DNA of 32,000 bases from Gemmata obscuriglobus (GTDB lineage Bacteria > Planctomycetota > Planctomycetia > Gemmatales > Gemmataceae), in assembly GCF_008065095.1 (NCBI RefSeq), contig NZ_CP042911.1, forward strand, positions 6,720,001 to 6,752,000. Reading direction: 5' to 3'. Within the stretch, counting starts at the first letter, position 1. Every line of letters starts with the position of its first letter. Under the pieces are notes generated by a model. The model saw only the letters and a list, made by a program, of their open reading frames with translations. It made no database searches and was not told the DNA's origin. The position numbers and the translations under genes are program-made. Shown here in pieces: positions 11,143-25,649 of this stretch.

Positions 11143-14100
11143 ATGGCGGCCACTCTCACGCTGGACGATGTGCGCAAGGCCTGGGACGCGCGCGACCCGC
11201 GGCTCATCACGCTCATCGAGCAGCTCTGCAACGAGCCCGTTCCGCCGCCCGAAACCCCGGTCCGCGACGGCGCCCTCACGTTCGACAAGTTCCTCGCACA
11301 CCTCCGCGACTGGCGCTACAAGCAGAAATCGAAAGAGGAGCAGGCGCACTACCGCGTCGAAACTCTCAAGGCGCTCGAAGCGCCCGACGCCGAAGTGCCC
11401 CTCGCGGACAAGCTCAAGGTCCACGAGGTGATCTGGGCGTTGTGGGAGTCGAACGACCCGCTGGCGCGCGACTACCTGCTGCGGATCGTCGCGCGGGTGC
11501 CGCTCGTGTACGGCCCGTGGAAGGCGCTGAAGAAAATCTTCAAGGAGTCCGAAGCGAAGAACGACACCGAGGTGTACGGGGCGGTCGCCGCCCGCCTCGA
11601 CATGGCCCACGCCGGCGCCGCTCACGGCAAGCAGGTGAGCGGCGCCACCGTCGCGTACCTCGTGCGCCGGGCGTGGCGGTACCTGCGCCGCGTGGGGCTG
11701 CACCTCCCCGCCACCTACCCGGACGTTGCGTGCGAGTTCCTCGTGAACTACACCGACGACGTCCGGCTCAACGGCACCTGGGTGTTCAACCACATCCTGT
11801 TCCACGACTCGAAGAAGTACGGGCGGTCGAACTTCCGGTTCGGCTACCGCGACAAGACCGCCGACCCCACCAACCTCAAGCACCGGGCCTACGGCGACAC
11901 GTGGAAGCGGTCGCACCGGCCGCTGTTCTCGCTCCTCGAGCGCGCGAAGTCGGACGCGGTGCGCGACTTCGCCACCACCGCCCTAAAGACGGACTTCCGG
12001 CAGGTCCTGCGCGACACGGAGCCCGCGTGGGTGGTGCGCCTGGTCGCCGTGCCGAGCCGCGCGATTCACGACTTCATCGTGTGGCTGCTCCAGAACGTGC
12101 CCCAGTTCGAGCAGTCGGCGTTCCGCGCGCTCGGGCTGCACGACGCCGTGCTGCGGCTGTTCGAGTCCCCTTCCGCGGACGCGCGGAAGTACGCGGCGAA
12201 CTACGCCCGCACCCACGCCCGCGATCTGCCGCTGGGCGAGCTGATCCGCCTCGCGAACAACGACAACGACGACGTGCGCAAACTCGCGACGGACCTCCTC
12301 GGCGAGAAGGACCCGCGCACGGGCGTCGGCCTGGACGCCTGGGGCCAGCTCCTCGAAACGCCGCACGGACACAAGTTCGCCGCCGACTCGATCACCAAGC
12401 ACTTCGGCGCGAACGAGCTCACCCCCGAGTGGTTCCAGGGGCGGCTGCTGTCGCGCAGCGACGACGCCTTCGAGTTCGCGAAGAAGCTGCTGCCCAAGAC
12501 GCACGACCCGAAAGTGCTGGGCGCACCGTTCTTCATTCAACTGCTCCGCAAGGCCGACCCCGACGGCAACTCCGAAATCGCGGACCGCGTCGCGGAGTAC
12601 GCGACCGAGCAACTGGGCAAGTTCGACCTGAACGCCGTGCCGCAGGACCAGTTGCACTGGCTCGCGCTGTTGCCGGCGTCGTCGGGCGGGGTGGACGACT
12701 GGCTCGAGCGCGGCAAGCTGAAGCCGCAAACGATCGGGACCGACTTCCTCAAGGCCCTCGCCTTCGCTCCCGACTGGGACGCGGCGCCGTGGCTCGCGGC
12801 GTTCAAGGCCGCCAACGGCCAGTGGGCGAAAGAGCTGAGCTTCGACGAAGGACGGGCGCAGCGCGTGCTCCGCTGGTTCGCGGACGTGCGCAAGTTCGCC
12901 AACCCCGAGTTGGGGCTCGACTGGCTGCTGCGCGTGGCGGCCCGCAGCGAGCCGATGTATCACGACTTCGCCAGCGACCGGCTGATCCGCACGTTCGTGC
13001 CCGCAGAGTTCGCGCCGCATGACGCCCCCCCGGCGACGGGCGCCGCCCCGGTCGGAACGACGGCCGCCGCGGGCGGCCCGGTCGATCTCGGGAAGGCGAG
13101 TTTCTGCTTCACGGGCACCCTCGCGAACATCACCGCCAAGGACGCCGAAGCCCGCGTGAAGGGCGCGAACGGTACCGTCGCGGCGAACGTCTCGCCCAAG
13201 CTTCATTACCTGGTGGTCGGGGACTCCGGCTCGCCCTTCCTGGGGCAGGGTCAGAAGGGCGCAAAGTACATCAAGGCCGAGGAGCTGAACGCGAACGGGG
13301 CCAACATCAGCATCATCTCGGAGACGATGTTCCTCCAGATGCTGAGCGGGCAGCAAGTGACGGCGTCCGGCGACGCGGTCGCGCGCGGCTGCGAGCGGCT
13401 CTGGCAGTTGGTGGTCGCCCCCGGCCCCGCCGACGCCCCGGTCGGGAAGTTCGCCCGCGAGTACCTGCGGAAGCACCACCCGAACATCGCGCAGAAGCTC
13501 ACCGACAAGCCCGTCGATCCGGGCGCCGAAGTTCCGGCGTCGTTCCTCACGCTCGAGCGCGTGCTCCCGCTGTTCAGCGAGAGCCGCAAGCCGCTCCGCG
13601 AGTTCGCGCTGGAGCTGGCGGGCTGGGAGTTCGCGCGCTGGAACCCGGGCGTCGATCACCTCGTCGCGCTGGCCGACATCCCGTTCATGGACGTGCGGCG
13701 GTTCGTCGCGAAGTCGCTTCTGGCCGAGGACACACCGCAGACCCGCCCCTTCCGCCTCGACCCGGCGAAGCTGGAACCGAGCGCCGTGTACCGGTTCTGC
13801 GAATCGAACGACGAGGAAACGCGCGCGCTCGGCATGGAGCTGATTAACCGCTTGCCCAAACTGCGCGTGCCCGAAGAACTGTTCCGCCTGTCGGAGAGCC
13901 CCGACCGGAAGGTGCGGGCGTTCGTCATCCGGGCGCTCTGGACCGTGTACCGCGACCGCGGGCTGACGCCCGACTGGAAGCCGCCGCTGCCGCCCAAACC
14001 CACCGTGGGCGCGAAGGCGAAGAAGGACGCCGAGAAGGCCGCGGCGAACCGCGGCGAGGGCGTCCCCCACAGGCCCGAAACGTGGCCCGCGGAGAAGCCC

Positions 14101-24311: not shown

Positions 24312-25649
24312 ATGAGCACACCGACACCAGTGCCCGCGCCCGCGGCGCCCGACACACAGACCCTCTGGCGCCTCATCGTCCAGGCCGGGGGGATGAAGGC
24401 GTACATCGACGGGCAGCTCCGCGAGCGCGGGTTCCTCGTCACCCGGCGCGACGCCGACGCGATGTCCGACCGGGAGAAGGACGCGTACAAGAAGGCGCTC
24501 AAGCAGGAGGCGGAGGAGCGCCGCAAGCTCCGGCGGGAGACGTGGGGCGCGTACAAGGCGAATCACATCGTTCACCTCGGCGAGGGCGTGTTCTGGACCG
24601 ACGAGCCGAAGGACGATAAGTGGGACACGCCCAACAGCGAGGAGCGGGCGGCCGAGAACGAACTCCCCGCGCTCGACAAACCCGAGCAGCTCGCCGAGGC
24701 GCTCGGCGTCACCGTCGCGCAGCTCAAAGGCATGGCGTACCACCGCGACGCCGCCACGTCCCTGCACTACGTCCGGTTCACCATCCCCAAGCGCGACGGC
24801 ACCGAACGGCCCATCTGGGCGCCGAAGAAGCGCCTGAAGGCCGCGCAGCGCTGGATCTTGCACCACATCGTCGAACGGTTGCCGGTTCACGGCTCCGCGC
24901 AGGGGTTCCTGGTCGGGCGGTCGATCCTCAGCAACGCGCAGGTTCACGAGAGCCCCAAGATCCTGCTGAAGATGGACATCAAGGAGTTCTTCCCGACCGT
25001 CACCGTGAAGCGGGTGAGGGGCGTGTTCCGCCGCGCCGGCTACCGCAATGGGATCAGCACGCTGCTGGCCCAGGTCTGCACCGAAGCGCCGCGCGAGATC
25101 GTGACCATTGAGGGAAAGACCTACTACGTCTCGCTCGGGCCGCGGTGCCTGCCGCAAGGCGCCCCCACCAGCCCGGCGATCACCAACGCGCTGTGCCTGC
25201 GCCTCGACCGCCGGCTCGCCGGGCTGGCGAAGCGGTACGGCTGGCGCTACACCCGCTACGCCGACGACCTGACCTTTAGCCTCCCGATGGAGCACAAGGG
25301 GCCGCCGAAGCTCGGCTCGATGCTCGGGTGCGCCCGACGAATCGTGGAGGCCGAGGGTTTCGAGGTCAAGTCCGAGAAGACGCGGATTCACCGAACGGGC
25401 GGGCGGCAAAGCGTGACGGGGCTCGTGGTGAACGGCGACGGCCCGCCGCGCACGACCCGCAAGCTGCGGCGCCAGCTCCGCTCGGCGATTCACAAGCTCA
25501 AAACCGGCAAGCCACTCCAAGAAGGCGAATCGCTGGCCCGCCTGACCGGCTACGCGGCGTTCGTCCACATGACGAACCCGGAACTCGGTCGCAAGATGCT
25601 CGCAGACATTCAGGGATTCGAGGGCCAGGCGGAAGGTCAAGTAGTGTGA
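24312..25649 (+). CDS. ret: Retron-type reverse transcriptase with an N-terminal extension of about 110-130 aa
   Basis: The motifs occur in the canonical order. They are YVRFTIPKRDGTERPIWAPKKRLKAAQRWIL, GRSILSNAQVH (the retron NAxxH motif), ILLKMDIKEFFPTV, LPQGAPTSPAITN and RYADDLTFS (a YADD catalytic box). SEKTRIH and RQSVTGLVVN (the retron VTG motif) follow. The layout closely parallels Ec86-type retron RTs as I remember them. Confidence 0.93.
   Translation: MSTPTPVPAPAAPDTQTLWRLIVQAGGMKAYIDGQLRERGFLVTRRDADAMSDREKDAYKKALKQEAEERRKLRRETWGAYKANHIVHLGEGVFWTDEPKDDKWDTPNSEERAAENELPALDKPEQLAEALGVTVAQLKGMAYHRDAATSLHYVRFTIPKRDGTERPIWAPKKRLKAAQRWILHHIVERLPVHGSAQGFLVGRSILSNAQVHESPKILLKMDIKEFFPTVTVKRVRGVFRRAGYRNGISTLLAQVCTEAPREIVTIEGKTYYVSLGPRCLPQGAPTSPAITNALCLRLDRRLAGLAKRYGWRYTRYADDLTFSLPMEHKGPPKLGSMLGCARRIVEAEGFEVKSEKTRIHRTGGRQSVTGLVVNGDGPPRTTRKLRRQLRSAIHKLKTGKPLQEGESLARLTGYAAFVHMTNPELGRKMLADIQGFEGQAEGQVV

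Follow-up and report, generated by a model that had tools for sequence, protein, structure and literature searches.

A probable type XIII retron operon of Gemmata obscuriglobus with a candidate template RNA at its head

We analyzed a window of 32,000 nucleotides from Gemmata obscuriglobus (assembly GCF_008065095.1, contig NZ_CP042911.1, positions 6,720,001 to 6,752,000; G+C about 70%; coordinates below are those of the window unless a locus number is given), in which a preliminary description had singled out five packed plus-strand genes, here P1 to P4 and RT (reverse transcriptase), as a candidate undescribed RT-associated system. The block most likely represents a complete type XIII retron operon, in which the non-coding RNA (ncRNA) expected to serve as template for multicopy single-stranded DNA (msDNA) lies ahead of P1; we put the probability of this reading at about 0.85, a figure that covers identity and anatomy, not function. 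The system is hence not undescribed, since type XIII was classified in 2020, is included in PADLOC, and its SWIM, HEAT/ARM and WGR-like partners had already been published. The open reading frames (ORFs) bore out the coordinates and common direction of the five genes as well as their junctions, which are, 5' to 3', a 4-nt ATGA overlap of P1 and P2 and gaps of 63, 153 and 195 nt, and a convergent gene closes the unit as described. Along the operon, the upstream element and the ncRNA are followed by P1, P2, P3, P4 and RT:

10764-10790, plus strand: conserved element TGAAAAAATGTGAACTACCCCGCTTGC, candidate promoter, immediately 5' of the ncRNA and retained in the majority of aligned loci
10823-11087, plus strand: retron ncRNA (msr-msd)
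11143-14439, plus strand: P1, 1098 amino acids (aa), HEAT/ARM solenoid with inserted BRCT, type XIII accessory protein
14436-15098, plus strand: P2, 220 aa, acidic lineage-specific orphan ORF
15162-22103, plus strand: P3, 2313 aa, giant beta-propeller and HEAT protein, type XIII accessory protein
22170-22230, plus strand: 3' end left over from a DUF559 gene, between P3 and P4, with only the terminal ...NERGYRV.R.WNIDAFRE kept
22257-24116, plus strand: P4, 619 aa, SWIM_XIII protein
24132-24258, no strand assigned: palindrome resembling repetitive extragenic palindromic (REP) elements, 42-nt arms, 95% complementary, with a degenerate third arm at 24264-24307
24312-25649, plus strand: RT, 445 aa, retron reverse transcriptase, clade 10 / type XIII
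25754-26494, minus strand: YjeF_N protein gene, next gene after RT, convergent

Identity and conservation of the operon

All four conserved proteins of the block matched type XIII models of PADLOC. P1 and P3 matched HEAT-ARM_XIII models (PDLC02921 with 1165 bits and PDLC02919 with 2092 bits over residues 158-2285, respectively), P4 matched SWIM_XIII (627 bits), and the RT matched RT_XIII with 524.6 bits against 289.7 bits for the runner-up model, its assignment to clade 10 being made from these model scores and not from a tree. The translated RT contains YADD, NAQVH (NAxxH, region X) and VTG (region Y), confirming that the catalytic and the retron-diagnostic motifs are intact, and it matched RVT_1 with an E-value of 2.7e-19. 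Its best solved relative was the Ec86 RT (1.9e-37), aligned from residue 117 and thus downstream of an N-terminal extension of about 115 aa, and the Ec67 RT matched at 2e-30.

Type XIII was defined by Mestre et al. (2020; NAR 48:12632; PMC7736814) as a clade-10 RT combined with a SWIM protein and HEAT/ARM proteins, so that the earlier statement that no retron type uses SWIM-WGR and giant HEAT proteins was incorrect. In that study, the SWIM protein (cluster 114) is described with a central DEDE motif (Dx7[D]x4Ex30-32Dx37E), a winged helix and a C-terminal SWIM finger, CxCx12CxH, and one class of HEAT/ARM accessory proteins carries a WGR-like domain, which is N-terminal in the majority form (cluster 216_1). 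This majority-form feature was not found in the window, where the PADLOC model WGR_XIII aligned to P1 over model positions 239-534 only, corresponding to its HEAT part; other accessory clusters are also on record for type XIII, and an N-terminal WGR is therefore not obligatory (PMC7736814). A variant with two HEAT genes ahead of the SWIM gene has likewise been described (PMC7736814), and the arrangement of P1, P3 and P4 fits it exactly. The experimentally validated members are Retron-Mxa1 (Mx162), Mxa2 (Mx65), Sau1 (Sa163) and Nex2 (Ne144), and the published ncRNA families of the type (Firmicutes, Mx162, Mx65 and Ne144) include none from planctomycetes (PMC7736814). A 2026 preprint survey counted 26 type XIII retrons in Planctomycetota.

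A search of species-representative genomes for RT homologues yielded 25 loci. The nearest RT was that of Gemmata algarum JC673 (99% aa identity); identity was 76-93% in the remaining Gemmataceae-type loci (L002-L021) and 61-67% in more distantly related metagenome-assembled genomes (MAGs) of Planctomycetota, Verrucomicrobia and Bradymonadia. Gemmata sp. JC717 encodes a protein with 99% identity to P1, and named P1 homologues came from Gemmata, Frigoriglobus, Limnoglobus, Urbifossiella, Zavarzinella and Fimbriiglobus. The order P1-P3-P4-RT was kept in 22 of 22 loci with a long enough contig, spanning Gemmataceae, an Isosphaera-labelled MAG, a Verrucomicrobia MAG and a Bradymonadia MAG, indicating that the adjacency is not incidental. 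The proposal that the RT forms one conserved unit with the HEAT/BRCT, propeller-HEAT and SWIM(-WGR) genes is thus upheld: orthologous RTs always kept the block instead of occurring in unrelated neighbourhoods, and neither a sigma-70-like promoter nor a strong terminator, which could have made the RT gene a mere neighbour, was found between the SWIM and RT genes. In the comparison with G. algarum JC673, a stretch with a nucleotide identity of about 96% had its limits at 15153 and 25633, and the flanks were not conserved.

The non-coding RNA ahead of P1 and its variable stem

When loci around P1 homologues were fetched, a strongly conserved non-coding segment was seen just before the P1 start, further 5' of which the sequences could not be aligned. 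This segment, at 10823-11087, shows every hallmark of a retron template, namely a1/a2 inverted repeats, a priming G in (T/C)AGC, msr hairpins and a long msd hairpin:

10823-10849, plus strand: a1 arm
10850, plus strand: predicted priming (branching) G, in TAGC at the inner end of the a1/a2 stem
10850-10890, plus strand: msr, two hairpins closed by a 4-bp stem, the GATGTTGCGTC loop region being invariant (15 sequences)
10910-11043, plus strand: msd template hairpin with conserved lower stem, helices 6-9, separated from the msr by a linker
10939-10966, plus strand: hypervariable left msd arm, 28 nt, helix 8
10967-10993, plus strand: conserved apical element of the msd hairpin, 27 nt (CCTGGAACAACCCCGCCGGTCGAGGTT), conserved across genera in the alignment
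10994-11021, plus strand: hypervariable right msd arm, 28 nt, complementary to 10939-10966 (29-nt arms with 97% complementarity in a repeat search)
11058-11087, plus strand: a2 arm

The ncRNA folded with -179 kcal/mol in RNAfold (z = -8.3). In an alignment of 15 sequences from five named genera and metagenomes, RNAalifold predicted 79 pairs, 47 of them with compensatory changes; 96.5% of the cells in these pairs were paired, compared to 74.5% in shuffles, and the covariation score was 0.60 compared to 0.15 in shuffles, none of 500 shuffles reaching 0.60 and a slide of the partners by 1-3 columns giving about 0.12. The msr helices 3-5 were 100% paired, with compensatory changes in 6 of 17 pairs. 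The priming motif was recognised by the rule of Simon et al. (2019); its A-G-C core was invariant (15/15), and two loci had CAGC, as do Mx162 and Sa163. The distance from TAGC to a conserved GTGAGCC was 191 nt in 13/15 loci; for comparison, Mx162 has a 241-nt transcript and a 162-nt msd.

A covariance model of the msr and lower msd was searched against the window and 52 loci (673 kb), and matches of at least 92 bits occurred only 5' of P1 homologues, with the next best match at 14 bits; within the window, the site at 10823-11087 was the only one. The ncRNA was conserved 5' of P1 in most loci with a long enough contig, and three further loci had a truncated or disrupted form. In L026 (9838-10000), the upper msd hairpin is deleted beside an intact P1; in L040 (900-1276), unrelated sequence stands in place of the 5' half (a1, msr and left msd arm), with P1 again intact; and in L049 the a1 arm is missing. 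The first two cases suggest that the system can decay in some lineages. No plus-strand terminator was present between a2 and the P1 start codon, and the conserved element at 10764-10790, in which no match to the sigma-70 consensus was found, may be the operon promoter. A template 3' of the RT gene was considered and rejected, since similarity between the window and G. algarum JC673 ends 16 nt ahead of the RT stop and a convergent gene overlaps the RT end in L008.

The neighbourhood of the ncRNA differs between genomes. In the window, an unannotated 324-aa ORF (9682-10656) with no family match adjoins it on the 5' side, and in two genomes it is directly preceded by an ATP-dependent DNA ligase gene associated with WGR, the WGR domain being fused to the ligase in Urbifossiella (L047 1-980, minus strand) and encoded by its own 75-aa gene in a Gemmata MAG (L049 1-406). 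The Bradymonadia MAG contains a second, diverged type XIII system (L024 11613-20458, minus strand), convergent to the first and composed of a 502-aa ORF, a 1146-aa presumed HEAT protein, SWIM, an ncRNA and a 540-aa RT. The a1/a2 arms of this ncRNA measure about 30 nt, and its position is the classical one, HEAT-SWIM-[a1 / msd hairpin / a2]-RT.

The variable segment of the msd was 83 nt long in every locus with locatable anchors. In helix 8, both partners had changed in 27/29 pairs and G-U occurred in a single cell, unlike the a1/a2 RNA stem with its many G-U pairs, a contrast that fits a stem that must pair as DNA. We gauged the change of the stem against synonymous third positions of the adjacent P1 gene in four pairs of loci (identity at these positions, left arm, surroundings):

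L035 / L052: 96.8%; left arm 28/28; flanks near identical
Window / JC717: 95.1%; left arm 25/28, with three fully compensated changes and one uncompensated; flanks near identical
L037 / L049: 91.3%; left arm 8/28, random level; msr and lower stem 91/94
L028 / L029: 86.3%; left arm 8/28, random level; msr and lower stem 88/94

Wholesale turnover of the arms at 9-14% synonymous third-position divergence, in flanks that are 94-97% identical, indicates that the stem is exchanged on a short time scale, and a conversion or recombination tract across the 83-nt segment would be the simplest mechanism. Among the 15 alleles, the only significant sign of shared stem ancestry beyond the window/JC717 pair was one 15-mer, GACGGGTACACGTAC, which the stems of L037 and L044 share at a 4-nt offset (0 of 300 shuffles reached this length) even though the two loci are not especially close, which hints at a mosaic or shared origin of stem alleles. 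Palindromic 6-mers were modestly enriched in the arms (19 compared to 9-11 expected; 8 of 2000 and 27 of 2000 shuffles reached 19), as were palindromic 4-mers (46 compared to 33-34). Some of the arm palindromes in the window and in L027-L051 resemble restriction sites (AGGCCT, GAATTC, GGTACC, GGCGCGCC, CAATTG and TGATCA). Neither an exact 21-mer of the window stem nor a conserved msd flank had a match in IMG/VR, a weak negative given that one allele was searched by exact matching. A conserved and a hypervariable domain have reportedly been noted in Mx162-type msDNAs, and the variable stem may thus not be new to the family.

Moreover, two tandem ncRNA cassettes precede a single operon in Limnoglobus roseus (L046; 843-1130 and 1202-1490) and in a MAG (L044; 809-1100 and 1185-1470). 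The constant parts of the L046 cassettes are 100% identical, the a1/a2 and 28-bp stems are unrelated, and copy 1 folds into the full architecture; in L044, a terminator-like hairpin with a T-run follows the first cassette.

Two other readings of the non-coding sequences had to be weighed. The preliminary description had drawn attention to the 195-nt SWIM-RT spacer, and it is indeed highly structured, 24117-24311 folding into a very stable hairpin of -111 kcal/mol (z = -9.9). Its position directly 5' of the RT gene, as in classical retrons, its stability, and the ncRNA between SWIM and RT in the second L024 copy would all suit an undescribed RT-associated system with the spacer as msr-msd-like template; comparative data have nevertheless already refuted this idea, to which we give next to no credence. 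Orthologous spacers are not conserved, some containing 'TTCACCGCAGAG...' palindromes as in the window, others 'TTAACCACAGAG...' versions and the remaining ones unrelated G+C-rich palindromes, and the spacer is just 6 nt long in L016, 31 in L023 and 36 in L024. The same palindrome family is found between a dehydrogenase-like and an ABC-transporter-like gene in L008 (18190-18310; genes named by reading translations), in the P1-P3 gap of L032 (13320-13445) and at the P1 end in Zavarzinella (L048 4729-4760). No SWIM-RT spacer matched the msr-msd covariance model, the spacer of the window contains neither TAGC nor an msr-like element, all partners match published type XIII models, and a fully canonical ncRNA is present upstream of P1. 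The spacer was therefore rejected as msr-msd and is better described as a dispersed palindrome. That the element ahead of P1 could instead be a cis-regulatory leader or an independent small RNA, in a lineage that has lost msDNA synthesis, is very improbable in our view. Its distance of 13 kb from the RT gene would fit such a role, as would the terminator-like hairpin of the first L044 cassette, which implies that cassettes can be separate transcription units. Against it stand the complete retron grammar of the element (a1/a2, TAGC/CAGC, two msr hairpins and a long msd hairpin), a size near that of the Mx162 transcript, a variable stem that avoids G-U as expected of a DNA product, and an RT, 76-93% identical among loci, in which none of the catalytic or retron-specific motifs is lost. 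The type XIII reading with the ncRNA at the operon head remains the one that we prefer.

The spacer palindromes are of some interest in their own right. They belong to dispersed intergenic palindromes built from CACAGAG/CGCAGAG-type units, exemplified in the window by 24132-24307, where the right arm is partly duplicated (24238-24257 and 24276-24295). Like REP elements, they are long, imperfectly conserved, scattered in intergenic gaps, strain-variable and sometimes partly duplicated, and they differ in that the 'TTCACCGCAGAG...' / 'TTAACCACAGAG...' family is specific to Gemmataceae. Long hairpins adjoining an RT gene in such genomes can thus be generic palindromes. No retron family was matched in an Rfam scan of the window, and the below-threshold matches of plant and animal microRNA precursors to the spacer (24123-24268) and to 29610-29676 were dismissed as artefacts of long hairpins.

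Accessory proteins, operon gaps and flanks

The domains first proposed for the partner proteins stood up to different degrees. HEAT repeats were confirmed in P1 and P3 by Pfam and NCBIfam (P3 HEAT_2 at 1.6e-71), and BRCT in P1 and SWIM in P4 were confirmed as well, whereas the beta-propeller of P3, at about residues 240-445, gave weak WD40-type matches and WGR was recovered weakly. The BRCT of P1 (residues 649-734) matched the BRCT end of a DnaQ-BRCT protein in NCBIfam with an E-value of 1.4e-11 and reached 22 bits in Pfam; LigA was also matched, and the domain resembles the BRCT of LigA and RFC1. An AlphaFold2 (AF2) model of P1 (predicted local distance difference test, pLDDT, 81) showed an all-alpha solenoid with a BRCT domain. 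The claim that the partners are devoid of a recognisable catalytic domain held at the level of Pfam, NCBIfam and fold, but the published DEDE motif is invariant in P4.

The view of the acidic protein P2 as a part of the system could not be maintained, as P2 is lineage-specific and not conserved. It was encoded in no other examined locus, the P1 stop there abutting the P3 start, and an exhaustive search of 1.84 billion representative proteins returned only two fragment matches, both of the same gene. P2 is probably a real gene, judging from its coding signature: GC3 (G+C at third codon positions) is 0.86, 219/221 aligned codons are kept in Gemmata sp. JC717, stop included, and the differences from JC717 are mostly at third codon positions. 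Both of its halves are weakly similar to the N-terminal helical module of P3 (E 0.001), and it probably arose by local duplication. In Zavarzinella formosa, a gene of the PDDEXK_3 nuclease family is inserted between P1 and P3 (L048 4806-5195).

P4 appears to begin with a PCNA-like clamp-fold region (about residues 1-350), in which the DEDE residues lie; a helical/winged-helix region follows, then the SWIM zinc finger and, at the C-terminus, a WGR-like domain. Two sets of residues were invariant in 32 homologues, the motif D126-x7-D134-x4-E139-x32-D172-x38-E211, the last spacing of which is one residue longer than in the published pattern, and the SWIM residues C507, C509, C522 and H524. The C-terminal WGR match was weak (Pfam E 0.0019, 18.7 bits compared to a cut-off of 22); 20/32 homologues matched the WGR profile at E<=1, some are named 'predicted DNA-binding WGR domain protein' by JGI, and the C-terminus of the P4 model forms a beta-sheet-plus-helix module consistent with WGR. 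In a Foldseek search of the PDB with the AF2 model of P4 (pLDDT 74.5, predicted template modeling score 0.70), 455 matches had E<=1e-3 and the best 50 were all PCNA of many species (E 8e-9 to 2e-7), with template modeling (TM) scores normalised to the target of 0.59-0.70 in 49 of these 50 and a root-mean-square deviation (RMSD) of 7-9 Å. No sequence similarity of P4 to PCNA was detectable, and a sequence search of the PDB gave no match. The first ~350 residues are thus predicted from the model to look like a DNA-clamp fold and not like the transposase-like domain suggested in 2020.

The gap between P3 and P4 contains differing palindromes or small inserted genes across genomes. In G. algarum JC673 it holds an intact 122-aa gene of the DUF559 family (Vsr-like endonuclease; L001 7567-7935; Pfam 7e-37), the remnant of which in the window gives rise to a misleading upstream GTG start at 22170, and in L005 and L012 small membrane-protein-like ORFs were seen (judged by eye from the DNA). 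Operon gaps repeatedly acquire small nuclease-like genes.

The retron is flanked in the window by chemotaxis genes on one side and by the YjeF_N gene and an RTX-repeat gene (26941-29550) on the other. The chemotaxis-type cluster (1048-9455) encodes CheW, CheR-TPR, a response regulator fused to a SpoIIE phosphatase and a pair of methyl-accepting proteins, of which one contains PAS. On the other flank, the RTX-repeat gene is directly followed by inverted repeats of 26 bp that match perfectly around an 8-nt loop (29613-29672), probably a terminator or a further intergenic palindrome. In L008, the flanks contain mnmE-, Obg- and ArgRS-like housekeeping genes (named by reading translations). Defence-island or mobile-element genes were not seen in the flanks of either the window or L008.

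Possible function and relation to known systems

On the basis of this anatomy we suggest how the system might work. The operon would be transcribed as one long RNA, the 5' leader of which would fold into the msr-msd; the RT, made from the last cistron, would bind the msr, prime on the 2'-OH of G10850 and copy the msd leftwards from about 11057 into a branched msDNA hairpin of perhaps 140-165 nt. This hairpin would consist of a conserved base, a perfectly paired variable duplex with its length fixed at 28 bp, and a conserved tip. P4 and both HEAT proteins may then assemble on the RT-msDNA particle, where the duplex would be gripped by the clamp-like fold irrespective of sequence and BRCT and WGR would read ends or junctions. 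The msDNA would serve as a monitored bait, and its disturbance by a phage function would release effector activity. It is plausible, as proposed earlier, that a large scaffold carries the BRCT/WGR/SWIM proteins and that these bind the RT product.

Whether such a particle is a surveillance or defence device, like other retrons, we regard as roughly an even bet. We lean towards it because the retrons with a demonstrated function all act in phage defence in the retron literature consulted, because the stem diversifies in a cassette-like manner, and because some genomes hold two cassettes. A more specific version, in which the swappable duplex of fixed length is a variable bait or address on an invariant msDNA scaffold, held by a PCNA-like module and read at its ends by BRCT/WGR, is doubtful, and we offer it tentatively; it would draw together the Watson-Crick-only pairing of the duplex, its richness in short palindromes, the exchange of cassettes among close relatives and their occasional tandem arrangement under one RT. 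If it were true, the oldest known retron family would be a chromosomally fixed surveillance machine with a HEAT scaffold of ~4000 residues, different in kind from the toxin-antitoxin retrons studied to date.

Several points weigh against our main explanation, in its anatomy or in its function. Vertical inheritance, family-wide presence, high conservation and housekeeping or chemotaxis flanks argue against a typical mobile defence system. No known toxin-type effector fold (ATPase, HNH, TOPRIM, nucleoside deoxyribosyltransferase, phosphoribosyltransferase, TIR, protease or transmembrane) was found in the partners, and Foldseek revealed no hidden enzyme fold in P1, returning karyopherin- and CAND1-like solenoids only. 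The DEDE-bearing SWIM protein is a published nuclease candidate, and the location of the DEDE residues in a clamp-like instead of an RNase H-like fold makes the nuclease idea for P4 weak; the clamp-fold call in turn comes from one AF2 model and a shallow alignment of 32 sequences, all at least 60% identical. The ncRNA lies 13 kb from the RT gene, which is unusual for retrons, and co-transcription of the two is presumed. Finally, no experiments on type XIII partners were found in the searched literature, and msDNA production by the Gemmata operon is a prediction.

In a rival explanation, the block is of type XIII and has become a domesticated housekeeping machine, with msDNA as structural cofactor of a large DNA-metabolism complex that would employ the clamp-like, BRCT, WGR, SWIM and HEAT modules in repair, replication restart or end processing, a possibility that we take seriously and still consider unlikely. 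Every Gemmataceae genus sampled has the operon, its order conserved and its identity high, and Mestre et al. (PMC7736814) reported vertical inheritance of type XIII that correlates with 16S and suggested domestication. Its flanks are housekeeping or chemotaxis genes and not defence islands or mobile elements, the partner domains are of the DNA-damage and replication kind (a BRCT as in LigA and RFC1, and a PCNA-like fold), ATP-dependent DNA ligase and WGR genes adjoin the ncRNA in two genomes, and no toxin fold is present. On the other hand, all demonstrated retron functions in the literature consulted are phage defence, and the replacement of the stem and the tandem, differing cassettes look like conflict-driven diversification, for which a fixed cofactor has no obvious need. 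Furthermore, the operon is disrupted or the ncRNA truncated in L026, L040 and L049, indicating that the system is dispensable. We keep to the surveillance or defence role as our leaning.

The original retrons are myxobacterial, and Mx162 was the first retron to be discovered (1984). In the literature searched, the function of the type XIII partners, including those of the Mx162 family, has never been tested. The Gemmataceae operons provide a clean comparative set, with the ncRNA located 13 kb upstream of the RT gene, a place that searches centred on the RT would probably miss, and the modular, rapidly replaced 28-bp stem, the tandem cassettes and the predicted clamp fold make the function of the type accessible to direct experiments.

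Compared to known systems, the first ~350 residues of P4 have a predicted fold like that of the PCNA sliding clamp of many species. This region has no detectable sequence similarity to PCNA, superposes with an RMSD of 7-9 Å and is fused to SWIM and WGR-like modules. The preliminary description had also pointed to a resemblance to the E. coli yehF-yehQ cluster, which comprises the WGR protein YehF, the DUF4132 protein YehI, the MoxR ATPase YehL, the vWA protein YehP and the SWIM protein YehQ. This likeness stands for domain types (SWIM, WGR and large helical proteins) and not for homology: hhalign aligned P4 and YehQ over 31 columns of the SWIM motif with a probability of 3%, and P1 and YehI with 0.2%, so that YehQ/YehI homology was rejected. 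In addition, SWIM is N-terminal in YehQ, the annotated yeh region is without an RT, and the MoxR and vWA genes are absent from the Gemmata block as stated earlier, no AAA+ or vWA domain being matched in its five proteins by Pfam or NCBIfam.

The characterised tripartite retrons Ec86/Eco1 (type II-A), Ec78 (type I-A), Eco2/Ec67 (type I-C) and Eco11 (type III-A3) share with the Gemmata operon a homologous RT, the same msr-msd grammar and the logic of RT, ncRNA and accessory protein. In contrast to these, the Gemmata accessory proteins amount to ~4000 residues of scaffold and nucleic-acid-reading modules without a known toxin fold, and the system is neither mobile nor located in a defence island.

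The closest relatives are the type XIII retrons Mx162, Mx65, Sa163 and Ne144, with which the operon shares the RT clade and the N-terminal extension of the RT, the SWIM protein with DEDE and CxCx12CxH, two HEAT/ARM genes before SWIM, the long msd hairpin, TAGC/CAGC priming and vertical inheritance. It differs in that the ncRNA opens the operon, at a distance of 13 kb from the RT gene, whereas the second L024 copy has it directly upstream, as does, we take it, Mx162. Moreover, the Gemmata P1 carries a BRCT, the WGR-like module is located at the C-terminus of the SWIM protein and not at the N-terminus of a HEAT protein, and the DEDE region is predicted to adopt a clamp fold in place of a transposase-like one.

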